Positions 17,334 to 39,893 of a stretch of 64,000 nucleotides of DNA are shown in pieces. The position numbers were made by a program, and so were the translations under genes. Location of the stretch: IMG/VR virus record IMGVR_UViG_3300028595_000010; one strand, 5' to 3'. Below the pieces are notes generated by a model, which saw only the letters and a list, made by a program, of their open reading frames with translations, was not told where the DNA came from and searched no databases. This DNA is from an uncultured virus (IMG/VR IMGVR_UViG_3300028595_000010). Taxonomy: Duplodnaviria > Heunggongvirae > Uroviricota > Caudoviricetes. How positions within the stretch are numbered: position 1 is the first letter of the stretch; every line of letters starts with the position of its first letter.

Positions 17334-17356
17334 TTTAGGTTTTCTATAAATCACAA

Positions 17357-20674: not shown

Positions 20675-20694
20675 TTAGCTTAAGAACACCCCTT

Positions 20695-20727: not shown

Positions 20728-20817
20728 CACTACGGCACAAGGAAGTTTAAACTGTATTTATATTTGATTTATTACATATATTCAAATATGAAGTTAATAT
20801 TATACTAAGGAAATTTT

Positions 20818-24740: not shown

Positions 24741-25562
24741 ATGGCTATAACAGATTCACAAAAAACTAATACACTTTTTAAAAAGCTGTTAGAAAAATCT
24801 CAGTCAGATGTCGATAAGCAGTTTTTCGAAGAGTTAAATACTCATAAAAAAGTATTACAACAAGATATTTGGGAAAATACCCCAAGTAGAACAACTCCGT
24901 CTGATTCAGTAACTGCTGGAATTATCTCACTAGTATCATCTCAAGCTTTTATTCATATCGCAGGAACTGATGCTGGGTATAGATTATTGGGAATTGAAAA
25001 TTTAATTCCTTTTAACTATGGCGATGTTGGAAGTACTGCTGAGCAGCTTGCTCCTACTGGATACAATTATGTACTAAAAACTGCTGGCGGAACAACTATT
25101 CCATTTGGATTGAATGATTGGTATATAGATCCCGACTCTGCTACTCTGATTTTCTTCGGAGGAAATCCTCCAGGAGTATCTCCATCGACTCCTCCTGTTA
25201 TTACATGTTATAGATATAGTGGAAGTTTAGGCGCAGCAACTGAAAATGCACTAAATGGATTTATTGAAAAAGTTAAAGTTAAAACTTATACTTTAGTTCA
25301 AGAAACTAATTTTTCAGGAGTTTTAACTGCTCTTGTAGCTCAATCAACTAATGTATCTGCATCAGGTATTTTGTCATTAGCAGTAAATGGGACGCCAGTA
25401 ACATTCAATGGAGGACCATTTATTATATCTGGTGTGACAGAAACTAACGATACTATTTCTACTGGAGGAGAATTTTCAGCAGGAGATAGAATTACTATGA
25501 CTGCTTCTAGTGTATCTGATTTAGAAGATATGGGCTTTACGATGAAATATGATAGGGCATAA
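24741..25562 (+). CDS. Probable virion structural protein
   Basis: S/T/G-rich, located in the appendage operon. Confidence 0.55.
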   Translation: MAITDSQKTNTLFKKLLEKSQSDVDKQFFEELNTHKKVLQQDIWENTPSRTTPSDSVTAGIISLVSSQAFIHIAGTDAGYRLLGIENLIPFNYGDVGSTAEQLAPTGYNYVLKTAGGTTIPFGLNDWYIDPDSATLIFFGGNPPGVSPSTPPVITCYRYSGSLGAATENALNGFIEKVKVKTYTLVQETNFSGVLTALVAQSTNVSASGILSLAVNGTPVTFNGGPFIISGVTETNDTISTGGEFSAGDRITMTASSVSDLEDMGFTMKYDRA

Positions 25563-25568
25563 AGTATA

Positions 25569-26432
25569 ATGGACTGGATTTTTATACCCGCTAAGGACAA
25601 CTATGAATACGAACCTTGTCTAGAACCTAATGCGGAATACGAACCTTGTCCTTCTTCTTCAAGTTCCTCTAGTGGTGGTATTACTAGTTCCTCTTCTAGT
25701 TCCTCTAGTAGCAGTGGAATAAGTAGTAGTTCAAGTTCCTCTTCTAGTTCCTCTAGTAGCAGTGGAATAAGTAGTAGTTCAAGTTCCTCTAGTGGTGGTA
25801 TTATTAGTTCCTCTTCTAGTTCCTCTAGTAGCAGTGGAATAAGTAGTAGTTCAAGTTCCTCTTCTAGTTCCTCTTCTAGTTCCTCTAGTAGCAGTGGAAT
25901 AAGTAGTAGTTCAAGTTCCTCTTCTAGTTCCTCTAGTTCTTCATCGGGATCTAGTAACAACGAATGTATTTGGAGTTTCGAAGGAACATGGTCTTGCGGC
26001 ACAGCATCAGGATCTGTGGATTCAACAACATTTGAAGGATGCGCGGATCCAGCTAGTTACACACTCGACACATGGATCTTGGTTCAATCGTCGGGCTACC
26101 CAGTGACCTGCGAATATATAATGTACCGCTCTGCCGGCTCATGTTCTGGTGATGGAGATTGCACATCTCCTCCATCTACGCCCAGTGCACCTACTGGAGT
26201 CGGATGCATTTGTAATCCTTGGTATTGTGTCAAAATTGAACAGTGGTCCGGTGGTAGCAATTGCGCTGGTGCTCCGACGTCCACCTCCCATTCCTGTATG
26301 CGCATGGCCGATATCGTGATGTACGGCGGCTGGGAGACATGCTACGACTACGGTAGCGGCTGCGTCAAACTTTACAACGATGGTGGTCCATATGAATCGG
26401 AAAGTGCATGTGAAGCTTGTCCCAATTGTTAA
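25569..26432 (+). CDS. Poly-serine plus cysteine-rich protein
   Basis: About 100-residue Ser tract punctuated by GI/GGI, then a Cys-rich domain. Confidence 0.75.
   Translation: MDWIFIPAKDNYEYEPCLEPNAEYEPCPSSSSSSSGGITSSSSSSSSSSGISSSSSSSSSSSSSSGISSSSSSSSGGIISSSSSSSSSSGISSSSSSSSSSSSSSSSSSGISSSSSSSSSSSSSSSGSSNNECIWSFEGTWSCGTASGSVDSTTFEGCADPASYTLDTWILVQSSGYPVTCEYIMYRSAGSCSGDGDCTSPPSTPSAPTGVGCICNPWYCVKIEQWSGGSNCAGAPTSTSHSCMRMADIVMYGGWETCYDYGSGCVKLYNDGGPYESESACEACPNC
25652..25956 (+). repeat. Tandem repeats encoding poly-Ser
   Basis: Recurring TAGTTCCTCTTCTAGTTCCTCTAGTAGCAGTGGAATAAGTAGTAGTTCAAGTTCCTC units. Confidence 0.9.
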
Positions 26433-26462
26433 TGATTTTAATGAACTAATTGGTAATAGATT

Positions 26463-29033
26463 ATGGACAATATAATTCTGCCCGGTTATCAAGGTGCAGT
26501 AGTAAAAGTTGACGGAAATTGTTATATATTCAAACAATATACTGCATCCTCATCTACTCATACTACAGTAGAAGGGGTATATGCAACTTGTATAGATTGT
26601 AATAGTAGTTCTAGTTCATCTAGTAGTTCTTCATCGTCAGGAATATCGTCTAGTAGCAGCTCAACAAGTTCTTCAAGTAGTTCTTCAAGTAGTTCCTCTA
26701 CATCATCAAGTAGCAGCTCAACAAGTTCTTCAAGTAGTTTATCTAGTAGCAGCTCAACAAGTTCTTCAAGTAGTTTATCTAGTAGCAGCTCAACAAGTTC
26801 TTCAAGTAGTTTATCTAGTAGCAGCTCAACAAGTTCTTCAAGTAGTTTATCTAGTAGCAGCTCAACAAGTTCTTCAAGTAGTTCCTCTACATCATCAAGT
26901 AGCAGCTCAACAAGTTCTTCAAGTAGTTCTTCTAGCACCTCAAATTTTGTTTTCATTGATAACATGAATGGATTAGGTGATGACTTTGAAGACATATCCG
27001 AAGGAGGAGTAGACAGTCCCCATACAATTACAGCTAATGGGGATGCTACTCAGATTAAAACTGCTCCCGGTCCTTTTGCTGATGGAGTTGGTTCGTTTGA
27101 TGGAACAGGCGATACATTATCAATTCCTGATAGTGATGATTGGTCATATGGGTCCGATGATTTTACTATGCGCGCATGGGTACGGTGGGAGGCTTTGTCT
27201 TCTACACAATATTATTTCTATGCTCAAGGAAATTCACCAATTATTTCATGGTACCATGATCATAGCACCAATGAATTGGTATTCTTTGATTACAATGGAA
27301 GTAGCTATTTAATTGAATTCTATTGTTCGTGGACACCAGTAATTGATACATGGTATCATATTGAACTAGTACGAGATGGAAATACATGGTACATGTTTAT
27401 CAATGGCGAAAGTCAAAGTTTGACTTTACGCAACGGTTCTTATTCGGCTACGTTGGGTAATTACTCATCTACGCTATACATTAATAGTCGTAATAATTCC
27501 ACTGGTTTCCATAATGGCCAAATGTGTGATTTTGAGGTGTCTGCAACAGCAAGACATACATCTAATTTTACCCCTCCATCTCGCCTATCTTCAGATTCCG
27601 ATACAAAATTATTACTACCCATGACAGCCGATCTGGACGGGTCAACGACATTCACAGACTCGTCAGGTAGACATACAGTCACCGCCAATGGTGATGCCGC
27701 AATCAGGAAACAAGTATTCAGCCCATTCGAGTGTCAGGCCGGAAGCTTTGATGGAACAGGCGATTATCTTAGTGTACCCGATAGTTCTGATTGGGATTTG
27801 GGAACTGGCGATGCAACTATAAGAACTTGGGTGTATTTCGATACACTCAGTTCTTCCCACGGAATCTTTACGCTGAAACAAGACCAAGACAATAGGGTCG
27901 GTTTTCGTTGGAATCATAGTAATAACAAATGGGCATTATATGCTTTATCAGGAGCATCTTCTGTTATAGACAAGGCATTCTCTGACTCTATCGCTCAAAC
28001 TGGTTGGTACTACATCTGCCTGGTGAAGAACGGCTCTACATATGACTTTTATCGAGATGGTGTAAAATTATCAGAAGCCGGTACTGATGGGGCATGGCCA
28101 AATTTAACGGCAGATTTGGACATTGGGCGTGCCGACTACATTACTTCCTTCCAGTATTTAGACGGTAAAATGGCAGACTTTGAAATCATAAAAGGTACTG
28201 CTATTACTGATTTCTCAGCTCCTACTGAACGCCTCACAAAGCAGGCAAACACCGTCCTTCTCGTTCCTATGAATGGCCTCGATCCAGACGGCTGGGAAGA
28301 CATTAGCGATAATACTCACACAATTACAGTAAACGGCAACGCCTTCATTGAGTCTGACGCGAGCGATCCATATGTTGATGGATGTAGCGAATTTGATGGC
28401 ACAGGCGATTATCTTAGTGTGCCTGATAGCGATGACTGGGATTTTGGGTCTGGTGACTTTACCGTTGAGTTCTTTCTCCGGTCATCCTTCATATCCGACA
28501 CATGGGACAAGTTCATCGTAGGCAGTAAAACTGATAGAGACGCCGGTACCGGATGGGCGTTCGCTATGGCTTCCCCTCAGAATCTTGGGAATGTTCTCTT
28601 TTGGAGTGGGGTCAATCAAACTCTTTCCAATGCATTGGGGTATGATACTGGACCAGATGTGAATGATAACACATGGCGCCATATCGCAGTAAGCAGAGAC
28701 GGAAACACCTATCGCCTGTTTGTAGATGGGACAATGGTTGACACCAATTCAGAGTCGGAAGCGGTTAATGCTGATGGAGATTTGTATGTAGGATCAAGCT
28801 TAGATCTGAATACCAACAGGTATTTTCCAGGCTATCTCGGCCCCACACGCATTTCCAAGGGCATAGCTCTTTACACATCTAATTTCACACCTCCAAATGC
28901 TCTATTTGTGGGCGCCTTTGGAGGAGATCTTGATGGGGGATCTCCAGGAGAGGCTGAGACAAACGTAGTGGATGGAGGAAGCGTTCCAAACCAAGCACCT
29001 TCAAATGTTTATGACGGCGGATCCTTGGGATAA
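26463..29033 (+). CDS. Poly-serine-stalked protein with three LamG/ConA-like domains (probable receptor-binding appendage)
   Basis: About 110-residue Ser/Thr tract, then three FDGTGD.LS.PDS.DW..G..DFT...W.HI....G......F.DG repeats; ends with DGGS repeats. Confidence 0.82.
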   Translation: MDNIILPGYQGAVVKVDGNCYIFKQYTASSSTHTTVEGVYATCIDCNSSSSSSSSSSSSGISSSSSSTSSSSSSSSSSSTSSSSSSTSSSSSLSSSSSTSSSSSLSSSSSTSSSSSLSSSSSTSSSSSLSSSSSTSSSSSSSTSSSSSSTSSSSSSSSTSNFVFIDNMNGLGDDFEDISEGGVDSPHTITANGDATQIKTAPGPFADGVGSFDGTGDTLSIPDSDDWSYGSDDFTMRAWVRWEALSSTQYYFYAQGNSPIISWYHDHSTNELVFFDYNGSSYLIEFYCSWTPVIDTWYHIELVRDGNTWYMFINGESQSLTLRNGSYSATLGNYSSTLYINSRNNSTGFHNGQMCDFEVSATARHTSNFTPPSRLSSDSDTKLLLPMTADLDGSTTFTDSSGRHTVTANGDAAIRKQVFSPFECQAGSFDGTGDYLSVPDSSDWDLGTGDATIRTWVYFDTLSSSHGIFTLKQDQDNRVGFRWNHSNNKWALYALSGASSVIDKAFSDSIAQTGWYYICLVKNGSTYDFYRDGVKLSEAGTDGAWPNLTADLDIGRADYITSFQYLDGKMADFEIIKGTAITDFSAPTERLTKQANTVLLVPMNGLDPDGWEDISDNTHTITVNGNAFIESDASDPYVDGCSEFDGTGDYLSVPDSDDWDFGSGDFTVEFFLRSSFISDTWDKFIVGSKTDRDAGTGWAFAMASPQNLGNVLFWSGVNQTLSNALGYDTGPDVNDNTWRHIAVSRDGNTYRLFVDGTMVDTNSESEAVNADGDLYVGSSLDLNTNRYFPGYLGPTRISKGIALYTSNFTPPNALFVGAFGGDLDGGSPGEAETNVVDGGSVPNQAPSNVYDGGSLG
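26604..26942 (+). repeat. 36-bp tandem repeats encoding SSSSSTSSSSSL
   Basis: TCTAGTAGCAGCTCAACAAGTTCTTCAAGTAGTTTA at 26742, 26778 and 26814, with variant units on either side. Confidence 0.9.
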
Positions 29034-29058
29034 AGCCAATATACAGGAGTAATGAACA

Positions 29059-29586
29059 ATGGCAGATACTATTCAGTTAAAACGTGGAACATCCAGTCAA
29101 TGGGAGAGTCAAAATCCATATCTTGAAGATGGTCAAGAAGGATGGGATAAGACCATACGGCGGATGAAGATTGGTCCGGGTTATTGGAATGATTTATCAT
29201 ATATAAACGGAGTAGTTGAGAACGTTGGTTTTGCTGAAATTAAAACCGATCGCGATTTTGAAGAAAGCGCGGGAAGCTGGCGTCCTATCTATGCCAAAAC
29301 TATAGACATCGGAGCTTTGCCAAATGCTACAACAAAAAATGTAGCACACAATGTGAGCAACATTTCGACTTGGGTTAAGTTAAGCGGCGTGAGTACCGAT
29401 GCTTCTAAAAATTGTCGTCCGTTGCCTTATGTAACATCCACACTCGCCACAATGATCCAATTGAGAGCGGATAATGCAAATATAATTATCCAAACTAGTT
29501 TCGATTGGAGTGCTTACAGCGGATCAGTTACCGGGGAATACACAAAGACTACCGACACTGCAACCAGCTCTCCGCGCTATACATAA
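29059..29586 (+). CDS. Short fibre protein with Mtd-N / hyaluronidase-type N-terminal domain
   Basis: IQLKRGTSSQWESQNPYLEDGQEGWD....MKIG motif. Confidence 0.7.
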   Translation: MADTIQLKRGTSSQWESQNPYLEDGQEGWDKTIRRMKIGPGYWNDLSYINGVVENVGFAEIKTDRDFEESAGSWRPIYAKTIDIGALPNATTKNVAHNVSNISTWVKLSGVSTDASKNCRPLPYVTSTLATMIQLRADNANIIIQTSFDWSAYSGSVTGEYTKTTDTATSSPRYT

Positions 29587-29730
29587 ATTCATCAGAAAAC
29601 AAAGATACTAATACTGACATTAATAAATTATCTAATTTTGATACCATTGTAGTTGACAAATAGAGAATATTCTAATAATTAGTCAGAACAAATAAATGAC
29701 TTATAAGTGCTAAATTTGGAGAAATTGAAA

Positions 29731-29958
29731 ATGACAGAACCAATTGATGATCTTAGAGACAAAATTGTTGAACTGATAAATGAAACAAATTCAGATACTG
29801 AATTTGTGATAGTTCTCCGTCAGAGTACAGGAGAAAATCATAAAATATCAACATCTATTAAATCTAAAGATCATTTTGGAATGATGCATATGATCGGACG
29901 AGCGTGCGGTGCTTGGGAAAGAGTCAATGTAAGAGATGAACATCTACTAATCAAATAG
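29731..29958 (+). CDS. Hypothetical protein
   Basis: ATG after GGAG; GAACAAA motif at 29686. Confidence 0.55.
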   Translation: MTEPIDDLRDKIVELINETNSDTEFVIVLRQSTGENHKISTSIKSKDHFGMMHMIGRACGAWERVNVRDEHLLIK

Positions 29959-30006
29959 TTCCTTTTATGACTCCTGAGCAATGGTAGCCAATTTTCCATT
30001 GGTTAA

Positions 30007-30021
30007 GAACAAATATTAAAT
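30007..30021 (+). promoter_or_regulatory. GAACAAA motif (putative late promoter)
   Basis: GAACAAATATTAAAT upstream of ATG 30047. Confidence 0.6.
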
Positions 30022-30046
30022 CTTAATCATATAACGGAGACATTAA

Positions 30047-30682
30047 ATGTTATCACAATTGTTTGAAAATGCAACTGGTTTCGATGCAGTTTTTAATGCT
30101 GAATCAATAAATTATGGTTGCAAAGCCGCAATTTTGAAGCACCTTCATGAGGCTGGAGAATTTGAATGTGATGATTACGTAAAGTATGAAATGTCATTCG
30201 AGGAAGCCTACAACCTTGTAACCGAAGAAGAAAATCAAATTCTCACAGAAAGTGTTGAGGGCGAGAATGTAAATCTTCTTGAATCAGCAATGCCTTACGC
30301 TCTATTCCATTTTGTCCAAGAACAAGGCTACTCAAAAGATGAATCAAAAGTTATTGCTGCATATCTTTATGAGAGCATGTGGTCAAAAAATGTTGGTTCT
30401 GCTCTAAAGAAGGATTGGGAAAAAACTAAAGAACGCCAAGGCAAGAGAAATCAAGCCGTTAAGAAGGGCGCTAAGAAGGTCGGTCAATTCATTAAGAAAG
30501 ATTGGCAAAAGTCCGGTTTGGATCCTAAGGACAAAGAAAGAATCAGAAAACTCAAAGAAAGACTGAAGTCCGCATCTGGACAAGCTGCTGAAAGAATTAA
30601 AAAGGATATCGCAAGAATTCAAGGATATTATAATAAGAATAGCAAAGTAGTCCGAGCAGTCAAGGCTGCTGCAAAAGCTTAA
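30047..30682 (+). CDS. Probable internal head protein, paralogue of 17404..18306
   Basis: Acidic N-half and Lys-rich C-half; YVKYEMSFEEAYNL vs YIKKEVTYEQLLNL. Confidence 0.55.
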   Translation: MLSQLFENATGFDAVFNAESINYGCKAAILKHLHEAGEFECDDYVKYEMSFEEAYNLVTEEENQILTESVEGENVNLLESAMPYALFHFVQEQGYSKDESKVIAAYLYESMWSKNVGSALKKDWEKTKERQGKRNQAVKKGAKKVGQFIKKDWQKSGLDPKDKERIRKLKERLKSASGQAAERIKKDIARIQGYYNKNSKVVRAVKAAAKA

Positions 30683-30700
30683 ATTCTACGCATATCTTCC

Positions 30701-30731
30701 AAGGAAGGAGATTAAGTTTCTCCTTCCTTTT
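30701..30731 (+). terminator. Rho-independent terminator
   Basis: AAGGAAGGAGA...TCTCCTTCCTT followed by T's. Confidence 0.85.
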
Positions 30732-30777
30732 CCAGGAGGTTATTAGTTAACCAAACGAATTGAATTTGAGGAAACTG

Positions 30778-31971
30778 ATGAATAAACGGAATGGTATGAT
30801 TTTAGTTAGTGGATGCCCGAGAAGTGGAACATCTGTATGTATGGATATACAGCGTGCTGCGCATGGGAGCGAAAAAATTCTTGGTGAAAAATTTCCACAG
30901 GAAGCCAGAAAAGCAAGACGGGAAAAACTCCGAGAATATCAAGAGAATGAACCTGTCCATGAATATAGAATCAGACAATACATGATCGACAAAGCAATTG
31001 CTTCAGAAAATGCAAATCAAAGTGAAGATGAGCAGAGATGGAGGGATATGAATCCTGAAGGATTCTGGGAGATGGCATTTTCAGTAAGAGGGATTATTTA
31101 TCATCCTCAATTCAAAGATACTCTAAAAGGAGTTCTTGAAGGAGAAACAAAGATTTGTAAGGTTGTCAGTCAAGGTCTCTTAATGTCTGACCCCCAATAC
31201 ATTGGCAAAATCATCTTTATGATCAGACATCCTAGAGCTGTTGCAAAATCTCAAGAGAGGCTAGTAAGAGGATTCAATTTTAGAGATGAGACAGATGGAA
31301 AAGTTAAAAACATCTTTGAAGGGATGAAAATCCATACTCCTGAAATGTTCATCGGAGTAACTACACAAGCAGCAAGATTCTTTTTAGATAATCCTGAAAT
31401 TCCTGTACGATTTTATCATTTTGAAAAATTGATTGAAGATCCGATTCCCTATCTTGATGATATGCAAAAGTTTGTTGGAGAAGGGGATTATAAAAAAGCA
31501 TGTAATATTGTTCAACCAAAACTAAACCGAAGTAAACATGAAGACGTCGAGAACAAATTATGGGGAGATGCATATTTCATCTATGATAAGTTATGCGAAG
31601 CAGCAGAACTAATCAATAATGATAACACCCGAGAAGAAGCAAACACACTCTTCAAAGAAATTCTTGAATATATGGAAGATCCAAAAAGAGAATATAATCG
31701 AGAAAAAAGACAATGGCGGTGTTATAGAGCAAAACATACTGTAACTGAAGATGTATGTCGGAGCTGTTATTATAACTCACATCATAGAGAAAACTTCAAA
31801 ATTCATAGTGAATCTACAGAAGGTAAAGTTTCTAAGCATTGGACACAAGAGCCTTGTCTCTTTGAATGCGGGATGGATCTTGATAGAGACCCGGATGATT
31901 ATTTAACAATCGAAGAAAGCATCGAAAATAATTTCTGGGAAACAGGAATACATTATCACCCTAATCAATAA
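30778..31971 (+). CDS. PAPS-dependent sulfotransferase-family protein with Cys-rich C-terminus
   Basis: 5'-PSB loop VSGCPRSGTS, 3'-PB motif IFMIRHPRAVAKS, and FEKLIEDP. Confidence 0.75.
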   Translation: MNKRNGMILVSGCPRSGTSVCMDIQRAAHGSEKILGEKFPQEARKARREKLREYQENEPVHEYRIRQYMIDKAIASENANQSEDEQRWRDMNPEGFWEMAFSVRGIIYHPQFKDTLKGVLEGETKICKVVSQGLLMSDPQYIGKIIFMIRHPRAVAKSQERLVRGFNFRDETDGKVKNIFEGMKIHTPEMFIGVTTQAARFFLDNPEIPVRFYHFEKLIEDPIPYLDDMQKFVGEGDYKKACNIVQPKLNRSKHEDVENKLWGDAYFIYDKLCEAAELINNDNTREEANTLFKEILEYMEDPKREYNREKRQWRCYRAKHTVTEDVCRSCYYNSHHRENFKIHSESTEGKVSKHWTQEPCLFECGMDLDRDPDDYLTIEESIENNFWETGIHYHPNQ

Positions 31972-31994
31972 AACTATAAAAAAGATAACTGACA

Positions 31995-32324
31995 ATGGCT
32001 AAATTTACACAAGAACAACTAGATCAAGCAAAATCTCTTCTAGAAAACGGCAAGTTACTTTTTCAAATGAAAGAAGATATGGGAATTGAACAAGAAGATG
32101 TCATGACCCTCAAAGATGAAATGATTGGCGCTTTCGGGATAGATAAAATCAGGCCATTAATCAGAGCAGCAATACAGTCACAAAATGGAAGTATTGGTTC
32201 ATTTGAAAAACTCCCCGCTAGAGTCAAAAAAATGGATCTAAAAAACATTGATAAGATTGATGAAATGATTGCTAATCTACAAGCAACTATCGTAGAGCTT
32301 AATATAATCAAAGCATCTCTTTAA
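31995..32324 (+). CDS. Hypothetical protein
   Basis: 109-aa ORF in the operon. Confidence 0.55.
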   Translation: MAKFTQEQLDQAKSLLENGKLLFQMKEDMGIEQEDVMTLKDEMIGAFGIDKIRPLIRAAIQSQNGSIGSFEKLPARVKKMDLKNIDKIDEMIANLQATIVELNIIKASL

Positions 32325-32746
32325 TGAACGACTTCTTCCATTCTCCACTTTGTCAAGGCCGAAACTATTGTGTAAAATGTAGGACAGATGAAATATTCAG
32401 AAAAGGAATTGTTGATAGTTTCGATGATATCAATGATCCCAATTTTAAATGTCCTTATAATATTACAAAAGAAAATCTTGGAAAAAAATTAGATTCAGGT
32501 GAAATTAAATATCCTGCATTATCTACCCAAGTTAAAAATTTTGGAAAAGCAATGTTTCGATCGGCTGTAGCAACTGTAAGTGGAGAACAAGTAGTAGTAT
32601 CAAATGAAGAACAACAGAGAAGGATAGGTCTCTGTAAACAATGTGAATTCTACGATGCTAAACAAAAGCGATGTAGAAAATGTGGATGTATTGCTCGATA
32701 TAAAGCTAAACTCAGAACTGAGCACTGTCCTTTAAACGTCTGGTAA
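32324..32746 (+). CDS. Cys-rich small protein (CxxC...CxxCGC...CP...W, DUF6171-like)
   Basis: CKQC...CRKCGC...CPLNVW plus extra N-terminal Cys; paralogue at 39618. Confidence 0.65.
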   Translation: MNDFFHSPLCQGRNYCVKCRTDEIFRKGIVDSFDDINDPNFKCPYNITKENLGKKLDSGEIKYPALSTQVKNFGKAMFRSAVATVSGEQVVVSNEEQQRRIGLCKQCEFYDAKQKRCRKCGCIARYKAKLRTEHCPLNVW

Positions 32747-32938
32747 TTGAATAATCCCATTTGCCGGTCACTGATAGCTTTTCATAATAAATACGCCCAC
32801 ATATGTACAACATGTACTAAATGCCGTCAAATCAGTCTTATTATTGTGTAGGGACACGACTGCAAGTAACTTTAATTCATATAAAAACCAATCAAAAATT
32901 CAAAATTGTTATAATTGAATGTGTAAAGGATATTATAC

Positions 32939-34567
32939 ATGGAATACCGAATTGATAAACAACTATGGAACTTAGATGATGAACGAGTTTTTCTTTTAGA
33001 ACATCAAAAGATAGACAAGCAGGAGTTTATTAAACGATTAAGACCTGACGATCCTATTGTTGTATCTGTAGATGATAGAAAAAAGATTACCTATATCAAT
33101 GTATTATCCAAAAAACAAATTCAGAATCAAATAAAAAATTACATTGAAAAATCTGTCAAACATATTCTAAGAACAGGAAATATTGAAGATGTTTCCATAA
33201 TGTTTGACAAAAAAGAGATTATTCTTGTTGTATTCCCCGAGTTAGAAAAAGCTTACAATGTGGCTGAAAAGAAAATTGATGCTTCTTCGTGTAAATCATG
33301 TGAACGACATAGAACTGGGCTCGATATAATAGATGAGATGTATAGAATTTCTGTGGAGAAACCTAGAGATTTAAAACATCTGAAACCATTTATGCCAGAG
33401 TTGGCTATAGATAAACTCCAAGGAAAGCATATAAATGCAGAAGGGATAAAAATTCGTATTCCATCTGCAATTGAGAAAAAAGATATTCCTTTAAAGGAAA
33501 ATATTCCACATATTCAAGCATGTCCAGTATCTGAAAAAGAAAGAGTTATTACTATAGTAGGGCATCCAAGTAAGCTAGGTGGCGCAGATACAGAATTAGA
33601 TCATCAAATAAGAGTATGGCAAGAATTAGGATTGCATGTTCAAATTCTTCACACTGGAAAAATTGATGCGAACCTCAAAGCTATGAAAATGGAAGAAAGG
33701 GGATGCACAATTCTTGAACCACGCAAATGGCAAGCATGTGAAGGTACACATGTAATATCATATTGCAATTCTGAATATCTAGAAAATATTCAAGCTATAA
33801 GAAGTCATGCGCTTTCAACCACATTTGTAAACTGCATGACTTGGCTCTTTCCTAAAGAAAAAGAGGTAATGGAGAAGGGACTTATAGATTACAATTTGTA
33901 TCAAAGACAAGGAGTAATGGATATAAATCTCCCACTCCTTCAACAGATCAATCCTGCACTTCAAGGTTTTGTGGTTAAACCTTATTTTCACAATGAAGAT
34001 TTTCCATTCATTCCTCCAGATCAAAGAAATTATGAAAGATTTAGATTTGGAAGAATTCATAGAGCTGACACAGGAAAATTTAGAACAGATACAAAATGGA
34101 TATATGAAACAATGGTTTCTCCTGTACTTAAAGAAGGAATCATTCTTGGAATCAATCAAAACTGTGAAAATAAAACCGGTAAGTTTCAAGACTGGATTAC
34201 ATGTTATGATTGTGGAGCTATAAGTCAGCAAGAATTCTATAAACGAGTTAATGTCATCATTCAACCTTGTGACGTTGGACATACTGAAAACCTTCCAAGA
34301 ATAGCTTTTGAGGCAATGTCGAGTGGAGTCCCATTAATAGTGGACAACAAAGGCGGATGGCCAGAGTTAGTCAAACATGGAGAAACTGGGTGGCTCTGCA
34401 ATAATGAAAGAGAATTTTCTTATTACTCCAGTAGAATGGCATATGAGAGAGAAGAATATCTCAAGATGATGAATAATGGAAGAAAGTGGCTACAAGAGCA
34501 TTGGAGTATGGATGCTGCAAAGAAAAACTGGACTAAATTCTTCAAACATATAGGGTTAATAAAATGA
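32939..34567 (+). CDS. GT-B glycosyltransferase (GT4-like) with N-terminal extension
   Basis: GGADTE; ENLPRIAFEAMSSGVPLIV...GG.PELVKHGETGWL (E-x7-E). Confidence 0.85.
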   Translation: MEYRIDKQLWNLDDERVFLLEHQKIDKQEFIKRLRPDDPIVVSVDDRKKITYINVLSKKQIQNQIKNYIEKSVKHILRTGNIEDVSIMFDKKEIILVVFPELEKAYNVAEKKIDASSCKSCERHRTGLDIIDEMYRISVEKPRDLKHLKPFMPELAIDKLQGKHINAEGIKIRIPSAIEKKDIPLKENIPHIQACPVSEKERVITIVGHPSKLGGADTELDHQIRVWQELGLHVQILHTGKIDANLKAMKMEERGCTILEPRKWQACEGTHVISYCNSEYLENIQAIRSHALSTTFVNCMTWLFPKEKEVMEKGLIDYNLYQRQGVMDINLPLLQQINPALQGFVVKPYFHNEDFPFIPPDQRNYERFRFGRIHRADTGKFRTDTKWIYETMVSPVLKEGIILGINQNCENKTGKFQDWITCYDCGAISQQEFYKRVNVIIQPCDVGHTENLPRIAFEAMSSGVPLIVDNKGGWPELVKHGETGWLCNNEREFSYYSSRMAYEREEYLKMMNNGRKWLQEHWSMDAAKKNWTKFFKHIGLIK

Positions 34568-37446
34568 TTGAAAATTTAAATATGTTCAATGCTAAAACAT
34601 TTGAACGAATATTTCCAGGTAAAAGAAAAATTTGTGTCATAGGAAATGGGCCTATTGATAAAACAGATTATAAGATAATTGAAGATTCTGATATTGTAGT
34701 TAGATTCAACGACTGGAATAGAAGAAGGACTTTTAATAAGGATACAGGTAACAGATGTGATGTTTGCTTCACAATGTATGATTCTGCTCCCATCATCAAA
34801 GATCCTTATACTAAGCCTCCGTGTGTAATCATTGCTATTCCTCATCCATTCCATTCAGAAAGAATTATTAAAGTAACAAACGATATGTGGACGGATGTAG
34901 ATGTAAGTATGGTCAATCCTTACATCAACGAAGAATGTTGTGCAGCAATTGGACTCAATAGTCCAGGAAATAGACATCCAATAAGCACAGTAGGATTTAC
35001 ATTTTTATATCATACTTCTAGATTTTTGTCTGATGACTATTCAGTTCATGTGTGTGGATTTTCTTGTAGATTTGATGGAGATCAAAAGAAGTTTGATCAA
35101 ACATTTGCAACGAACAGGAAACATAAAAGACATCAAAATCATTGTTATGTAAATGAGTTCTGGTGGATTCATGATAATCTTATGGAAGATAGTCGTTTTA
35201 CATTCTCAAGAACTCTAAGAAGAATCAAAAATCTTGTAAAGAATGTAGATAAGTGCTCAGAAGATTTTAATGATCTTGATAAATTAATGATGCGAGTCAT
35301 TAAAGGAAAACCTTTTGCGTTAACTAGATACGGCGACTATGAGATTAGAGCTATTACAAAACCTGATACTAAAGTAGGGCCAAATAGTAAAAGCTGGATT
35401 CTTGATCCCAACAATGAAGCAGATTGTAAATTAAGACAAGAACTCATTGAATCTTACAAATACAACGATCCGAACAATGACTACATCGTTGGGTGGCATC
35501 CAAAGTTTCCTATTCCTGATGATGCTTGTAACCACATCATTAATGCCTGCATTATGGTCAATGCGAACTACAATCAATTTCTCAATAAATTGATTTTTAG
35601 TGAATTTAAGACTAGAAAAACAGTCTTGATATGTAATGAGGAATGTGATCCATCTAAACTCCCATTTAAACCAGAGAAAGTATTCTTTATAGATAAGAGA
35701 CAATCGTGTTGGAGATATGGAGACATTCAAGATGAACTTGAAGAATATCTGACTAAAACTACAGAATCACATGTAGTTCTTTTTGCTGCTGGCCCATACA
35801 GTTGTACAGTAATATGGAAGGCGTGGTCTAAGGGAATAAAAAATCACTTTTTACTAGACATAGGTTCAGTATTAGATCCTTATCTATTTGGCAAAAACAC
35901 CAGAGGATATCATAGAAAGATGTCTCCTGTTCTATCTAGTGTTGAAGATTATAACGAAGTCCATAACCAGACTGAAGGGATTCCTAAAAAGATTCATTTT
36001 GTATGGATAGGCAAACATATGCCAGAATTTTGCACATATGCTCTGGATATGTTCAAAATATTAAATCCCGATTACGATATAAAGGTGCATGATGAGTCCT
36101 CTCTTAATGATAAATACAAACCTCTTCTGCCCAAATGTCGAAGGACAGCTCAAATAGCTGATTTGATTAGAGCATCTATATTAGAGAAAGAAGGAGGATG
36201 GTATTTTGATTTCGATATGATTCCTAATTCTTCAATAGATACAATTGCATCTGAATATAAGGTGAAAGATTTTTTCATAGTTGCACAACGAGATAAGAGA
36301 ATTACTAATTCAATTATTGGAAGTGTGAAAAATCATCCTATCTGGAAATCTTATTACAATTATGTTGTCAAAGTGGAAGAATGGAATTACACAATGTATG
36401 GCCCAATGTGTTTCACTGAAATTGTTCCAGAAGATATGGTTTGCAACGATGCAAACATGTTTTATGCATTGTGCGCCAAGATGTCTACGCATCGAATGTT
36501 CTATTCGATGAATGATAAAGAAGAATTCAAAAAACACTATTCTGTAATTCATAATAGATGTAAAGGAAGAACTCCACACATGATTCATTTATGGGGAATC
36601 CCTATACGCCCAGGAGTGAAAGAAATCTTTGAAAAAATCTATAAGGATAGAGGATGGACATTCGAAGATCAAAGAAGGCCTGAGGACAACAAATTAAAAA
36701 TTATTCTTTCTTTTCGGGCAGAATTTGGAATGAAATTGATGTGGCATGTTCCGTGGGTGAACGGAATTAAAGGGACCAATCGAATCATTTGTATTGAAAA
36801 GGGAGATGAGTGTTTATATCCGAATGCTAAAGAGTATATCGTCCTTGATCGTAAGGCAGATAAACATAGAAAACATCTGTCTAAGTTTGACAAAGAATTT
36901 AATGATGAGTTAAAAGCATCTCTGGTTAAGAAATATCCTGACGCAGAATACATATATCCTAAAGAAGGTGGTCCATTAAAATGCTTTGTCCCAACTCCTA
37001 CAAAATTAAATGGAATTGGGTGTGATATTGTAATAGCGCCCAGAAAGAGAGATGTTGCACCAATTAGAAATTGGCAGCATTGGGATGATCTAGTATCAAA
37101 ATTGAAGGATATGCATTATAAAATATTTGCTGTTGGATCACCAGATGCAAGTTATAAAGTAGATTGCCCAGCATCATGGGATTATGATAACTTCTTAGAT
37201 GCTACTGTTGAAGCTTTATTAAATTCCAAATGTCTCATTTGTACAGATACAGGAGTTGGATATTTATCTTTATTATGTGGAACTATGGTAAACATGATAT
37301 CATCCAACAAGGCATTGATTCATCCTGGTGGAACTCCTATCAGAATTAATAGATTTCAACAAGTGAATCACAAAAACGTTCAAATCAATGTGATGCACGA
37401 TACATGGAATAGCGCTGAATCAGTAATGCAAAAATTCTTGTTCTAA
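34564..37446 (+). CDS. Four-domain glycosyltransferase fusion (GT29-like, GT-D/DUF1792-like, GT32 DxD, GT9-like)
   Basis: ICVIGNGP..D.VVRFN; RYGDYE...AGP...LDIGS; IPKKIHFVWIG..ADLIR..GGWYFDFD; AEFG...RNW..W..TDTG. Confidence 0.78.
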   Translation: MIENLNMFNAKTFERIFPGKRKICVIGNGPIDKTDYKIIEDSDIVVRFNDWNRRRTFNKDTGNRCDVCFTMYDSAPIIKDPYTKPPCVIIAIPHPFHSERIIKVTNDMWTDVDVSMVNPYINEECCAAIGLNSPGNRHPISTVGFTFLYHTSRFLSDDYSVHVCGFSCRFDGDQKKFDQTFATNRKHKRHQNHCYVNEFWWIHDNLMEDSRFTFSRTLRRIKNLVKNVDKCSEDFNDLDKLMMRVIKGKPFALTRYGDYEIRAITKPDTKVGPNSKSWILDPNNEADCKLRQELIESYKYNDPNNDYIVGWHPKFPIPDDACNHIINACIMVNANYNQFLNKLIFSEFKTRKTVLICNEECDPSKLPFKPEKVFFIDKRQSCWRYGDIQDELEEYLTKTTESHVVLFAAGPYSCTVIWKAWSKGIKNHFLLDIGSVLDPYLFGKNTRGYHRKMSPVLSSVEDYNEVHNQTEGIPKKIHFVWIGKHMPEFCTYALDMFKILNPDYDIKVHDESSLNDKYKPLLPKCRRTAQIADLIRASILEKEGGWYFDFDMIPNSSIDTIASEYKVKDFFIVAQRDKRITNSIIGSVKNHPIWKSYYNYVVKVEEWNYTMYGPMCFTEIVPEDMVCNDANMFYALCAKMSTHRMFYSMNDKEEFKKHYSVIHNRCKGRTPHMIHLWGIPIRPGVKEIFEKIYKDRGWTFEDQRRPEDNKLKIILSFRAEFGMKLMWHVPWVNGIKGTNRIICIEKGDECLYPNAKEYIVLDRKADKHRKHLSKFDKEFNDELKASLVKKYPDAEYIYPKEGGPLKCFVPTPTKLNGIGCDIVIAPRKRDVAPIRNWQHWDDLVSKLKDMHYKIFAVGSPDASYKVDCPASWDYDNFLDATVEALLNSKCLICTDTGVGYLSLLCGTMVNMISSNKALIHPGGTPIRINRFQQVNHKNVQINVMHDTWNSAESVMQKFLF

Positions 37447-37508
37447 AAAACAAATGAAAAATATTATACTCATCGTCATAAACAGAAGTAAAAAATATAG
37501 GTTATAAA

Positions 37509-38462
37509 ATGTATTTAATAAGCACAACATATGGATGGAATCTTGGAGATGATTTAATAAGAGAGGGGTGCTTCAATCTTTTGGATATAACAGGAGATGC
37601 TTGTTTCTTTTTGGATAGAACTATGCTTAATAATAGGAAGAGAACCTATCAATTTCAAAAGAACACCCCTCCACTCGATGAGTTATGTAAAGCATCAACT
37701 TCATTTATTGCAGCTGGAACTCCTGAGTGGTATTTGGGAGATATATTTTCTGCATGCAGAGAAAATGATCTTCCAATCATAATTATTGGTGCAGGAATGG
37801 GTGGAAGATCATTGGAGTCAAGCAAACATCTTATTAAAATTGCCACTTGTAGAGATCATATTGCATTTAAGACATTCAAAAATAATGGAGTTGAAGCTAA
37901 AATATTTCTAGATCCTGCTTTCTTTTGCAATCTGGAACATAAGAACGATACGAAAAAATATGATATTGTAATGAATTTTAGAGCTGGAAGGGGAAATGGG
38001 CATGATACATTCAATCCAGTATATATTGACAGATTTAAGAAACTCTATAGTCAATACAGAGATCGAATTTCAATTATTACTGCTCACGAAGTTCAAGAAT
38101 TGATTGTCGCACAATCTTTGTTTCCTGATTCAAATATATTCTTTAGTAGTGATTATAGAGATTACAAAAAGATATACTTCAATTGTAAACACTATATAGG
38201 TGGCAGAATTCATGGATGTATTCCTGCGTATATAGGCGGGGCGGATGTTCATGTAATATATCATCATCCTAAAATGGGAGTGATCAAATGCGCCAATTCA
38301 ATTCTTCCTAGTGAATTGGGACATTTGAAACTGTATAATTTTACCAAGGATGTGCATATACCTTTTGACTATGAAGATAAGTTTATTACACGCCAAGAAT
38401 TCTTGTCTAATTATTTCAAGGAATATAAAAAATATATTCAAGAAAAATTAGACAAAAAATAA
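37509..38462 (+). CDS. Polysaccharide pyruvyltransferase-family protein
   Basis: NLGDDLI, TCRD, DPAF, GRIHGCI.A. Confidence 0.75.
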   Translation: MYLISTTYGWNLGDDLIREGCFNLLDITGDACFFLDRTMLNNRKRTYQFQKNTPPLDELCKASTSFIAAGTPEWYLGDIFSACRENDLPIIIIGAGMGGRSLESSKHLIKIATCRDHIAFKTFKNNGVEAKIFLDPAFFCNLEHKNDTKKYDIVMNFRAGRGNGHDTFNPVYIDRFKKLYSQYRDRISIITAHEVQELIVAQSLFPDSNIFFSSDYRDYKKIYFNCKHYIGGRIHGCIPAYIGGADVHVIYHHPKMGVIKCANSILPSELGHLKLYNFTKDVHIPFDYEDKFITRQEFLSNYFKEYKKYIQEKLDKK

Positions 38463-38501: not shown

Positions 38502-39344
38502 CTATTTTTTAGGACGATGTTTGAGAAACACCACAGTATAGGTATCCGCTGGTATAACTTCGGTTACACCACCACCAACCACCTTAGACATGAACATCAT
38601 TGAGACGGTTTTTCGGCCATTCTTTATTGTGCCGGTGTTTTTAGTCGGAGTCCATCCTTTTTCAGTATACTTTTGTGCAGCAAAATTTGCCACACAGATG
38701 TATATCTTTCCCCCGTCTTTGATCTCCAACTTGGTCTCTAATGTTTCATTCACCATTACATCTGATCGGACGTAATAGTAACCTCTCAACTCCTTAAGAT
38801 CAGGATATTCATAGTCCCGATCATTCCAGAGTTTCGCCGTCTTGGTTGATCGAACAATCTTCCAAGACTTATCATCGTCTCGGATGACCTTGACATACGC
38901 ATCCTTCTTTGCCAATTTTTTAAGATCGACGACCTTTTCAAAATCCTTGGTCATCTTTCCTTTAATGATGTCAACTTTATCTTCTGCGTAGTATTTGGTA
39001 TCTCCATTCCACCATTTGGCGTTATCAAGAATGACCGCTTTTTCTTTTGCCTTTTTGCAGATCATTGCTCTTTCAAAATCTCCCTTCTTGGTATAGTAGA
39101 CGATAGCCTTATCAAGATAGGTGTGGTACTCCTTGATCGCCTTAACCATAGCCTTATCATATTCAGCTAAGGCTTTAGCGGAGGCTTTGTCTAGACGCTC
39201 AAGAGCGATCTTTTGATGTTTTGCAGTGATCTCCTTCTTTTCAGGAGTGGGTGTTTCCTGGCCGTATGCAGTCCAAGCCAGGAAACCAATAATCACCATT
39301 AATGAGATGATGATTGCTTCAATTAGTGTAGGTGTCTGTTTCAT
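38502..39344 (-). CDS. Secreted or membrane-anchored hypothetical protein
   Basis: N-terminal signal-like sequence ending AYG|Q; AAGGAG RBS; helical L....TKKGD.E.A segment. Confidence 0.65.
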   Translation of the reverse strand: MKQTPTLIEAIIISLMVIIGFLAWTAYGQETPTPEKKEITAKHQKIALERLDKASAKALAEYDKAMVKAIKEYHTYLDKAIVYYTKKGDFERAMICKKAKEKAVILDNAKWWNGDTKYYAEDKVDIIKGKMTKDFEKVVDLKKLAKKDAYVKVIRDDDKSWKIVRSTKTAKLWNDRDYEYPDLKELRGYYYVRSDVMVNETLETKLEIKDGGKIYICVANFAAQKYTEKGWTPTKNTGTIKNGRKTVSMMFMSKVVGGGVTEVIPADTYTVVFLKHRPKK

Positions 39345-39617: not shown

Positions 39618-39893
39618 ATGGACGATTTTGATGATGATTTGTTCGATGATGAATTTCCCCCATTCCAAGTTCAAGTCTGGAACTTTATAAAATCAATGGC
39701 TAAAGTTTTTTGGGCATTAATAACTTTAAAGAAAGTTAAAGTATCAGATAGAGAATTTATGAGAAGACACAATATCTGTATGGATTGTGATCAACTTCTA
39801 AGAAAAAAGAGATGTAAACAATGTGGATGCTTTGTTGATCCTAAAGCCCGACTTCTGACTGAAAAATGTCCTTTGGGAAAATGGTCTAAATAA
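39618..39893 (+). CDS. Cys-rich small protein (DUF6171-like), paralogue of 32324
   Basis: CMDC...CKQCGC...CPLGKW; AAGGAG RBS. Confidence 0.68.
   Translation: MDDFDDDLFDDEFPPFQVQVWNFIKSMAKVFWALITLKKVKVSDREFMRRHNICMDCDQLLRKKRCKQCGCFVDPKARLLTEKCPLGKWSK

Follow-up and report, generated by a model that had tools for sequence, protein, structure and literature searches.

Long serine-rich tracts that act as stalks bearing a binding domain are known from the streptococcal adhesins Fap1 and GspB, which are O-glycosylated stepwise by soluble cytoplasmic glycosyltransferases (GTs), namely GtfA/GtfB, Gtf3 and the DUF1792 GT-D enzyme GalT1; that system is known to involve neither sulfation nor pyruvylation. 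Maf (nonulosonic acids on flagellin, PDB 5mu5) and TibC/BAHT (heptosylation of autotransporter Ser, PDB 4rap) are likewise cytoplasmic bacterial protein O-glycosyltransferases. Long homopolymeric Ser spacers also lie between the modules of surface or secreted carbohydrate-active enzymes of Saccharophagus degradans and Teredinibacter turnerae; such marine bacterial linkers are usually read as plain flexible spacers, and we know of no dedicated modifying enzymes linked to them. Among phages, the Che8-type mycobacteriophages use phage-encoded soluble GTs to modify their own structural proteins in the cytoplasm, the acceptors being the C-termini of capsid and tail-tube subunits (Freeman et al. 2023, Cell Host Microbe, cited in PMC12619734). 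No poly-Ser stalks, sulfotransferase, pyruvyl transferase or multi-module GT are known to have been reported for that system. The fibrils of Mimivirus, a eukaryotic giant virus, carry long glycans made by virus-encoded machinery, including GlcNAc with a 4,6-pyruvate ketal; these polysaccharides sit on a different kind of fibril protein, and PMC8456856, in what it says of the fibrils, describes no link to a sulfotransferase.

The locus considered here lies in a window of 64,000 nucleotides (the whole stretch of DNA analysed), which was found in marine-sediment runs; the sulfotransferase it encodes is recorded on a contig as long as 185 kb. The locus is the appendage module of a large phage whose capsid is T4-type, and its features and those further on are as follows.

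22985-24727, + strand: fibre-like structural protein, first of the appendage block (580 aa; phrog_8578, E = 8e-20)
25569-26432, + strand: poly-Ser protein 1 (287 aa; N-terminal MDWIFIP, Ser tract, C-terminal domain)
26463-29033, + strand: poly-Ser protein 2 (856 aa; 47-aa N-terminal domain, Ser tract, three LamG domains)
29059-29586, + strand: 175-aa protein with a fibre/tailspike-type N-terminus (phrog_697 and phrog_27786, E = 1e-7 to 6e-7; weak Mtd_N match)
30760-31971, + strand: PAPS-type sulfotransferase with a conserved Cys-bearing C-terminal extension (Pfam alone weak, E = 0.006)
32324-32746, + strand: DUF6171 Cys-rich small protein (Pfam); second copy at 39618-39893
32939-34567, + strand: GT4-like (GT-B) glycosyltransferase (PF00534, E = 3.8e-12)
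34564-37446, + strand: four-module GT fusion (960 aa; modules D1-D4)
34564-35259, + strand: fusion module D1, sialyltransferase-like fold (GT29/GT42-like)
35260-35958, + strand: fusion module D2, GT-D (DUF1792)-like
35959-36663, + strand: fusion module D3, GT-A with a DXD motif (WYFDFDM) and a GT32/GT44-like sugar-binding region
36664-37446, + strand: fusion module D4, compact GT9-like (heptosyltransferase family) GT-B
37509-38462, + strand: polysaccharide pyruvyl transferase (PF04230, E = 3.9e-17; CsaB model, 1.6e-8)
41961-44126 and 44632-45294: fibre genes with Collar/Gp10_C
47536-48252, + strand: GT2 glycosyltransferase (PF00535, E = 1.7e-16), 9 kb further on, past the two tail-collar fibre genes

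The best reading of this module, which we hold tentatively and which draws on gene content and arrangement, is that the phage may O-glycosylate and sulfate or pyruvylate its own Ser stalks in the cytoplasm. Such decoration would resemble that of mycobacteriophage structural proteins and of Mimivirus surface fibrils.

The sequence-only reading had described two adjacent appendage genes with poly-Ser tracts of about 100 residues, one preceding a Cys-rich domain and the other three LamG domains, and this description holds. The tract of poly-Ser protein 1 spans residues 27-134 (nt 25647-25970; Ser at 84 of 108 positions, 78%) and is followed by 152 aa with 15 Cys, a C-terminal domain without a match in Pfam, PHROG and Atlas searches. 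In poly-Ser protein 2 the tract spans residues 44-164 (nt 26592-26954; 97 of 121, 80%), with three Laminin_G_3 stretches C-terminal to it (Pfam, E = 2.3e-41); families of virion structural proteins and of baseplate wedges are among the PHROG matches of this protein, and its N-terminal domain is homologous to the N-terminal domain of a poly-Ser/FG-GAP protein at another viral locus (L025 2687-4825, E = 3e-8). When the entire window was scanned in all six frames, Ser runs gave three matches, all within these two genes. Each tract uses both AGY and TCN codons (tract 1: AGT 37, TCT 23, TCC 13, TCA 6, AGC 4, TCG 1) and is made up of 36/60/120-nt tandem units; the tracts are thus repeats of coding sequence in which serine is maintained, as opposed to a simple run of one triplet. 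When contigs from three marine-sediment runs were compared with the region, the tract flanks matched at 99-100% identity but the contigs of all three runs break inside the tracts, so that the exact tract lengths are without independent confirmation. A natural in-frame variant without both tracts is present in two runs; this, like the usual view of marine bacterial Ser linkers as spacers, counts against decoration of the stalks. Those linkers, however, are in secreted enzymes, whereas the phage tracts belong to virion proteins and have a genomic link to a sulfotransferase.

The domain calls made earlier for the downstream + strand enzymes (sulfotransferase, GT4-like enzyme, four-domain fusion and pyruvyl transferase) and for the GT2 proved right. 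A profile of the predicted sulfotransferase (A4) matches SULT1A3 (1cjm, E = 1.3e-5), most of its 404 relatives carry PF00685/PF13469, and its GCPRSGTS and RHPRAVAKS segments align to PAPS-binding motifs; sequence comparison thereby confirmed the family assignment. The enzyme looks catalytic, judging from the conserved PAPS motifs and from the APS kinase genes (PF01583, E = 1e-34 to 1e-42) that adjoin it in three of 28 loci carrying the family. DUF6171 (E = 4.7e-6 and 9.5e-9 for the two copies in the window) has a homologue directly 5' of the sulfotransferase in one of these loci, L011.

Ahead of its GT domain, the GT4-like enzyme has an extra 195-aa N-terminal region, which was assigned to no family; its PDB matches are BshA-type and other GT4s, and orthologues of 340 and 356 aa occur in the related records L002, L003 and G003 (E = 1e-102 to 1e-122). 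Within the fusion, the RYGDYE, AGP and DIG motifs are present in D2 and align to the GT-D prototype GalT1 (profile A2; 4phr/4pfx, E = 1.3e-3), and relatives have weak GT-D or GT-D-like Pfam matches. D3 matches PF04488 (E = 2e-8) and PF12919 (E = 1.5e-10), and, of its PDB sequence matches (E = 9e-7 and weaker), the recognisable ones are protein-modifying GT-A enzymes. D4 (about 250 aa) is a compact version of its fold. For each module of the fusion there are solved relatives that act as cytoplasmic glycosyltransferases on protein Ser/Thr, which supports decoration of the stalks; against it, the structures that D1 and D4 match best have glycans or lipid A core, and not protein, as substrates, Maf and TibC/BAHT being outscored by sialyltransferases (D1) and LPS heptosyltransferases (D4). 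The proposed analogy with Fap1 stands as far as the weak GT-D match goes; unlike in streptococci, no GtfA/GtfB-type pair, accessory Sec system or LPXTG motif was identified in the window, and the phage tracts are near-homopolymeric Ser in place of dipeptide repeats.

None of the cassette enzymes and neither poly-Ser protein has TM-like segments, and the enzymes are soluble. The 64-kb window encodes no polytopic membrane protein, and a Pfam search of it found no lipid-carrier machinery (flippase, polymerase, ligase or phosphoglycosyl transferase). The cassette genes share strand and tight spacing with the virion operon; the + strand run ends with the pyruvyl transferase gene, and the next gene is convergent (38502-39344, minus strand).

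The expected co-occurrence of poly-Ser genes with this GT set was borne out in two related records, adjacent in L002 and within the same genome in G003, but the fusion is absent from other poly-Ser phages. In the phage contig L002, a gene for a poly-Ser protein with the same MDWIFIP N-terminus lies 117 nt from the orthologous GT4-like gene and divergent from it; the GT4-like gene is followed by a D1-D3 fusion, D4 as a separate ORF and the pyruvyl transferase (5124-6110, E = 1e-43), and a fibre-like gene flanks the other side. The N-terminal motif of the fibre-like protein heading the block in the window recurs in L002 (6597-7103, E = 2e-8) and in L001 (15378-15941, E = 2e-9). The complete 341-kb genome G003 has the sulfotransferase, the GT4-like gene and fusion pair and, among 437 called genes, four poly-Ser ORFs that represent three distinct genes, one being duplicated in the terminal repeat. 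Several comparisons count against decoration of the stalks: the G003 fusion and the closest poly-Ser gene are at least 21 kb apart; around the L003 fusion, no poly-Ser ORF lies within 10 kb; poly-Ser genes are present in G002, G004 and G005, and the D1-D3 fusion was not found in these or in G007 and G008, all sulfotransferase-bearing; and in L001, the closest capsid relative (MCP 77% identical), the linker protein encoded at the corresponding position is poly-Pro and not poly-Ser. A search of the 193-kb L001 contig (61% complete) found no sulfotransferase or GT matches.

We surveyed 28 viral loci with this sulfotransferase family (L011-L038; 26 distinct sequences), and found poly-Ser ORFs in six of the 28, or five of the 26 distinct. 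In all five distinct poly-Ser loci the poly-Ser gene is the immediate, co-oriented neighbour of the sulfotransferase gene (product of the per-locus chance values, 2.8e-4). As a control, 39 viral loci centred on homologues of D4 or D2 (GT9/GT-D; 617 kb, 766 genes) were scanned, and none has a poly-Ser ORF (P = 0.008 against the sulfotransferase loci, one-sided Fisher's exact test). The statistically supported link of poly-Ser is thus with the sulfotransferase, and not with GT-D or GT9 modules generally. The sulfotransferases beside poly-Ser are scattered over the family tree, on which well-supported branches force at least four changes, and have terminal branches of 0.7-1.0 substitutions per site; given this spread they may count as independent cases, in support of stalk decoration. 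GT/methyltransferase/sulfotransferase clusters adjoin the pair in L019 and L030, and GT4 genes lie elsewhere in all four large records with the pair (four of five records searched). This repeated adjacency suggests, without proving, that the phage decorates its own stalks. The earlier proposal of glycan, sulfate and pyruvate on the stalks thus gains a comparative linkage, to which must be opposed the 22 of 28 sulfotransferase loci with no poly-Ser ORF within 10 kb, where the enzyme must have another or broader target. Also against it, the other three distinct poly-Ser loci (L016, L021 and L025) have no GT in the available flanks, and a search of all 28 loci found none of the four fusion modules.

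An alternative that we consider unlikely is that the Ser tracts are unmodified flexible spacers, and that the cassette acts in the infected cell on envelope glycans of the host (LPS core, capsule or S-layer glycan), for example stopping adsorption of progeny or competitors; its place among fibre genes would then reflect only that host-range genes gather there. The LPS heptosyltransferases that are the best matches of D4, the action of CsaB-type pyruvyl transferases on cell-wall polymers, the poly-Pro protein of L001, the tract-less variant and the occurrence of GT/sulfotransferase sets without poly-Ser in most loci all fit this account; it is harder to square with enzymes lacking TM segments, a window without lipid-carrier, flippase or ligase genes, a cassette laid out with the virion operon, and an adjacency to poly-Ser above both chance and control. 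Rather unlikely is direct sulfation of Ser hydroxyls to poly-O-sulfoserine with no sugar between, the GT/pyruvyl cassette serving another acceptor or being an optional add-on. Here the adjoining gene is indeed the sulfotransferase and not any GT, three of the five loci show no GT nearby, GT-D/GT9 modules have no poly-Ser association, and the family matches PF13469, which presumably also includes protein tyrosine sulfotransferases. However, we know of no serine sulfotransferase from bacteria or phages, the best solved relatives are small-molecule SULTs, GT clusters are close by in the window, L002, L019 and L030, with GT4 genes elsewhere in the large records, and most loci have the enzyme without any poly-Ser gene.

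It is quite improbable that the cassette decorates other virion proteins (capsid, tail, LamG or other fibre domains), the poly-Ser linkage being a by-product of a shared appendage module. Of 68 neighbours of the sulfotransferase scanned in the 22 loci without poly-Ser, those labelled are tail fiber (L017, L024, L029), tail assembly chaperone (L035, L037) and internal virion protein (L034), and in L031 a collagen and LamG protein lies directly 5' of the sulfotransferase; the mycobacteriophage acceptors are a reported precedent (Freeman 2023, cited in PMC12619734). Most of the neighbours are unannotated, however, with 'structural' inferred for them, and poly-Ser as immediate neighbour in every distinct locus that has it would be left unexplained. 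That the GTs hypermodify phage DNA is scarcely credible: GTs that glycosylate DNA are well known in phages (Pyle 2024, cited in PMC12619734), and QueC-like, NUDIX and kinase genes occur in the window, but the cassette is in the appendage operon, away from these nucleotide genes, and the thymidylate synthase, at 347 bits where TIGR03284 requires 108, is a true equivalog, so that the window shows no hydroxymethyl-pyrimidine route. To our knowledge, moreover, neither sulfation nor pyruvylation is a DNA modification.

Under decoration of the phage's own stalks, the appendage module would carry its own cytoplasmic decoration cassette; we infer the Ser tracts as acceptor, together with the order of steps, donor sugars and purpose given here. 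Late in infection, before assembly or while it proceeds, soluble phage enzymes would work on the two new appendage proteins. O-linked sugars would be started on the homopolymeric Ser tracts by one or more GTs (candidates being the GT4-like enzyme, the four fusion modules and possibly the GT2), and other modules would extend the chains. An acidic sugar, nonulosonic or ulosonic, may come from the sialyltransferase-like D1, while pyruvate ketals would be supplied by the pyruvyl transferase and sulfate by the PAPS-dependent sulfotransferase. The outcome would be a stiff, strongly anionic and protease-resistant stalk that would set the Cys-rich domain and the three lectin-like LamG domains at a distance from the virion.

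The window is phage DNA. Its structural genes are listed here together with the poly-Ser and enzyme genes under study.

Structural, poly-Ser and enzyme genes of the window
12962-16063: T4-type portal (Portal_T4) with an intein (Intein_splicing, E = 3.7e-17) and an HNH endonuclease (HNH_3, E = 3.9e-8)
16668-17333: prohead protease
19235-20674: gp23-type major capsid protein
25569-26432: protein 1, poly-Ser and Cys-rich
26463-29033: protein 2, poly-Ser and three LamG domains
30760-31971: sulfotransferase
32939-34567: GT4-like enzyme
34564-37446: four-module GT fusion
37509-38462: pyruvyl transferase
41961-44126 and 44632-45294: tail-collar fibre genes
47536-48252: GT2

Among deposited phages, the best matches to the capsid protein are jumbo phages, at about 25% identity; the sole capsid relative found, L001, has a major capsid protein 77% identical to that of the window. 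The window sulfotransferase is recorded on a contig of up to 185 kb, and the DNA at 25300-29300 is present in three marine-sediment metagenome runs from three studies. Consensus scans of the window gave promoter-like sites (58, against 63.9 expected) and terminator-like sites (13, against 9.9 expected) at the level of shuffled sequence, and were left out of the reading; no RNA dataset was listed as carrying the region. A homing-endonuclease-like gene of 565 aa (20818-22515; phrog_3339, E = 5e-122) lies directly 3' of the capsid gene, and L001 has a 560-aa ORF (11566-13248) in the equal position. The thymidylate synthase ORF (50128-51810, minus strand; 560 aa) matches in two stretches and contains an HNH endonuclease-like region (phrog_2081, residues 162-394); either an intein or the insertion of a homing endonuclease could account for it. 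The G+C content of 10001-12000 is 0.455, against 0.32-0.37 in both flanks, and the 693-aa ORF located there (10011-12092) has no Pfam or PHROG match. A QueC-like gene (1334-2083; PF06508, E = 1.9e-15), by position unrelated to the cassette, hints at deazaguanine chemistry.

The sequence-only reading had described two adjacent genes encoding poly-Ser tracts, one joined to a Cys-rich part and the other to LamG domains, and both ORFs were confirmed with this architecture. Protein 1 (287 aa) has 84 Ser within residues 27-134 and a 152-aa terminal part with 15 Cys; protein 2 (856 aa) has 97 Ser within residues 44-164, followed by three Laminin_G_3 domains. No further Ser runs of this kind were found in any frame of the window. 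The reading frame of the tracts is set by the recognisable downstream domains, and because both serine codon boxes are used and the tracts are built from 36/60/120-nt tandem units, their make-up suggests that serine has been selected for, and that the runs are not the outcome of simple slippage. Public contigs from the three runs confirm the flanks and break within the tracts, none bridging them, so tract length is known from this assembly alone. In the same runs (X1-X3), contig words from the tracts (25702-25969 and 26774-27041) reach a summed depth several-fold above that of their flanks; thus, Ser-tract words are common to other sequences of these samples, and poly-Ser coding repeats may be common in them. 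The Cys-rich domain gave no usable ESM Atlas match, and the Cys-rich parts of proteins from the window, L001 and the fusion-bearing phage record L002 are without significant mutual similarity by BLASTP.

The 403-aa sulfotransferase ORF has a weak Pfam match (E = 0.006; 17.3 bits against a cut-off of 27), and a PDB sequence search with this single protein gave nothing meaningful. The family to which the ORF belongs has at least 404 members; of the 120 relatives listed, most carry precomputed PF00685/PF13469 matches, and five relatives that were scanned lie above the Pfam cut-off. A 21-sequence profile matched human SULT1A3 in the PDB (E = 1.3e-5) with both PAPS-binding motifs aligned: GCPRSGTS, nearly invariant across the 21 sequences, with YPKSGTT of SULT1A, and RHPRAVAKS, in which R156 and S164 are invariant, with RNPKDVAVS. 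We assign the ORF as a sulfotransferase whose C-terminal extension bears Cys and is conserved. An APS kinase gene (PF01583, E = 1e-34 to 1e-42) adjoins the sulfotransferase gene in three viral loci (L014, 9411-10013; L015, 2256-2816; L018, 9440-9937). It is a phage-borne PAPS supply step, which argues that the sulfotransferase is catalytically used. A search of genome contigs with the sulfotransferase returned one Bacteroidales MAG contig, without poly-Ser, and we draw no host assignment from it.

Each of the four modules of the 960-aa fusion (D1-D4) is also found free-standing elsewhere (1735 matches at E <= 1e-3); the closest relative of the fusion (P0002) is 65% identical. D1 has the GT-A variant fold common to ST3Gal-I and Cst-I/II, and is sialyltransferase-like (GT29/GT42) in fold; its profile matched nothing among PDB sequences, and no gene for CMP-sugar synthesis was seen by Pfam in the 64-kb window. 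The RYGDYE, AGP and DIG motifs of D2, previously proposed to be of GT-D type, were indeed aligned to the DUF1792 prototype by the D2 profile. RYGDYE, in which R23, G25, D26 and E28 do not vary across 10 sequences, aligns to RFGDGE of 4phr and has the DxE metal-binding motif. The profile match to 4phr is weak (E = 1.3e-3), D2 of the window protein has no Pfam match in the GT-D families (PF08759/PF22882), and among four free-standing relatives scanned one barely passes as GT-D-like (28.5 against 27), two are sub-threshold and one is without a match; we regard D2 as putatively GT-D-like. D3 is a GT-A DXD domain, and D4 is a compact GT9-family fold that matches WaaC/WaaF by sequence profile (PF01075) and by fold. 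The GT4-like enzyme matches PF00534 in its C-terminal nucleotide-sugar-binding domain (residues 432-517; 46.5 bits against a cut-off of 26.4); NCBIfam GT4 models match the C-terminal part only, all far below their cut-offs, and an additional 195-aa N-terminal region belongs to no known family and is absent from orthologues. Its 17 PDB sequence matches at E <= 0.1 include BshA-type, WbaZ, PglH-type and other named enzymes, none of them named GtfA. The pyruvyl transferase has the full PF04230 domain, scoring 63.5 bits (cut-off 25.3), with residues 11-253 covering positions 1-279 of the 280 in the profile; a PDB sequence search with this single protein gave nothing meaningful. The GT2 has a clear Pfam match. 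Single-protein searches found no close IMG/VR relatives of the fusion or the GT4-like gene, and a fusion alignment matched no genome contig. A small Cys-rich DUF6171 protein is encoded in two copies flanking the cassette (32324-32746 and 39618-39893), and a homologue (9519-9935) lies directly upstream of the sulfotransferase in the viral locus L011.

The cassette enzymes and both poly-Ser proteins have no TM-like segment, and the latter no signal-like segment either. The window encodes no polytopic membrane protein, and lipid-carrier glycan machinery has no Pfam match in it. Any glycan here is made by soluble enzymes on a soluble acceptor. The best-supported reading, which we put forward tentatively and at rather less than an even chance, is that the phage O-glycosylates its own Ser stalks by means of a soluble late-operon cassette, which also adds sulfate and pyruvate. 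Such modification would yield a stiff anionic stalk beneath lectin-like heads. Self-decoration of the stalks had already been proposed from sequence; it is retained here in sharper form, with its comparative support firmest for the sulfotransferase part.

Scanning IMG/VR with the sulfotransferase family profile yielded 28 loci, of which 26 are distinct. Poly-Ser ORFs, defined as having any 30-residue window with at least 70% Ser, are found in six of these loci (five distinct: L016, L019, L021, L025 = L026 and L030). In all five, a poly-Ser gene directly adjoins the sulfotransferase gene, co-oriented with it and at tight spacing; allowing for how many poly-Ser genes each locus has, the chances of adjacency are 0.10, 0.087, 0.125, 0.68 and 0.38 (product 2.8e-4). 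The control set of 39 viral loci anchored on D4 (14) and D2 (25) homologues has no poly-Ser tract in any of its 766 called genes, so that poly-Ser occurs in 5 of 26 sulfotransferase loci versus 0 of 39 control loci (P = 0.008 by one-sided Fisher's exact test). The sulfotransferases with a poly-Ser link lie scattered over a maximum-likelihood tree, at least four changes being forced by its well-supported branches, and terminal branches are long; the arrangement is thus old or recurrent, and not one recent inheritance. Adhesion-type domains (FG-GAP, Kre9/KNH Ig-like and LamG) are present in the poly-Ser proteins of these loci, and one such protein has the N-terminal domain of window protein 2. 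In L019 and L030 the pair is adjoined by GT9, GT4, GT2 and GT8 genes, methyltransferases, more sulfotransferases and sugar-modifying enzymes; no GT was found in the available flanks of L016, L021 and L025. A further locus, L013, has neither the fusion nor poly-Ser; its enzyme mix resembles that of the window, two GT9-like genes and one for a pyruvyl transferase joined to a methyltransferase lying within 7 kb of its sulfotransferase (12797-18149, minus strand).

The D1-D3 fusion was found in three records besides the window. In L002, an 18.8-kb contig, the fusion is 41% identical to that of the window, and a poly-Ser protein starting MDWIFIP, like window protein 1, is encoded divergently from the orthologous GT4-like gene, 117 nt away, the contig ending within the poly-Ser gene. 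Beyond the GT4-like gene lie the fusion, a separate ORF for D4, a pyruvyl transferase, a methyltransferase and then a fibre-like gene that the window shares. The L003 fusion, which has an extra N-terminal part that looks sulfotransferase-like by eye, adjoins a GT4-like orthologue, a cupin, collagen-like fibre proteins and GroEL, with no poly-Ser ORF within 10 kb. The complete 341-kb record G003 has terminal repeats and 437 called genes; because its GT4-like and fusion pair has ORF lengths equal to those of L003, the two are probably the same lineage. It encodes a sulfotransferase of this family and four poly-Ser ORFs, two of them one gene repeated in the terminal repeat, and none of the four is closer than 21 kb to its fusion. 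Thus poly-Ser genes are present in every fusion-bearing record of sufficient length, with tight linkage in the window and L002 only. Whole-record scans for Ser-codon runs were used qualitatively, since their pattern is specific neither to serine codons nor to one strand. The expectation that related phages carry both gene sets is partly borne out, by L002 synteny, the G003 genome and the sulfotransferase adjacency, and not by the D4/D2-anchored loci or by most sulfotransferase loci.

Several observations count against the preferred reading. Five other sulfotransferase-bearing records lack the fusion, poly-Ser genes being present in three of them, and all four large records (four of the five searched) carry GT4 genes, but far from the sulfotransferase/poly-Ser pair. 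In L001, a 305-aa protein with a poly-Pro tract of about 90 residues (20011-20928), followed by a Cys-rich ORF (20945-21436), takes the slot of the poly-Ser genes; the contig stops shortly past the appendage genes, too soon to judge whether a cassette follows. Contigs in two of the three runs (X1 and X3) join window position 25597 to 26936, an in-frame deletion of 1338 nt (29 + 2098 nt, 708 codons) supported on its shorter side by 195 nt in X3 and only 28 nt in X1. In the predicted product, the first nine residues of protein 1 (MDWIFIPAK) run directly into the LamG body of protein 2, and the Cys-rich domain and both Ser tracts are missing. This tract-less form, probably a coexisting strain variant, indicates that the stalks are dispensable or variable in nature.

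As the comparative evidence attaches most firmly to the sulfotransferase, direct O-sulfation of the tract serines has to be weighed, at a probability that we consider low. We likewise give a low probability to a broader proposal, that widespread large-phage sulfotransferases, sometimes with a phage APS kinase, make virion Ser stalks a polyanionic brush, as poly-O-sulfoserine or as sulfated O-glycans. The top structural relatives of D1 and D4 act on glycans and LPS core, which counts against self-decoration; that the cassette modifies the host envelope and leaves the Ser linkers unmodified is unlikely, yet not negligible, and it has to be set beside the soluble nature of the enzymes. Also against the preferred reading, 22 of the 28 sulfotransferase loci have no poly-Ser gene. 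Their neighbours are mostly large unannotated ORFs, and a few of 68 neighbour proteins scanned match families of GTs or of tail fiber, tail assembly chaperone or internal virion protein. We think it improbable that other virion proteins are the acceptors. DNA glycosylation by the cassette GTs is very improbable, being weakened by the window's ThyA, a true thymidylate synthase.

The proposed cassette would work much as does serine-rich-repeat adhesin (SRRP) glycosylation in streptococci, and the analogy with Fap1 stands as far as the weak GT-D match and its aligned motifs. The window cassette is not a member of that system. No accessory Sec component (SecA2/SecY2/Asp) has a Pfam match among the 59 window ORFs scanned, and no SRRP-type cell-wall anchor was found on the poly-Ser proteins. 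Of the GtfA/GtfB initiating pair none was identified, the window having only one GT4-like gene. Mycobacteriophage self-glycosylation, as cited in PMC12619734, works much as the proposed cassette would, and the fibril glycans of a giant virus, with pyruvylated GlcNAc, resemble the proposed pyruvylated stalk glycans (PMC8456856). Among the matches listed in the open-access literature, we found none on poly-Ser phage virion proteins, on a linked phage sulfotransferase or on O-glycosylated serine-rich tail fibres of phages.

To our knowledge, a few actinophages are so far the only phages shown to glycosylate their own particles, and we know of no description of polyanionic modification of Ser stalks for any virus particle, or of O-sulfation of serine in bacteria. 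The adjacency of sulfotransferase and poly-Ser genes is a concrete, testable prediction. If the receptor-binding appendages of large marine phages do carry stalks with sulfated, pyruvylated glycan or sulfoserine, a defined, small set of soluble enzymes would be available with which mucin-like or heparin-like polyanions could be built onto a poly-Ser scaffold that is itself genetically encoded. Host recognition would then have an added chemical layer, which would also bear on the stability and stickiness of particles in sediments and on the reading of phage host range from sequence alone.
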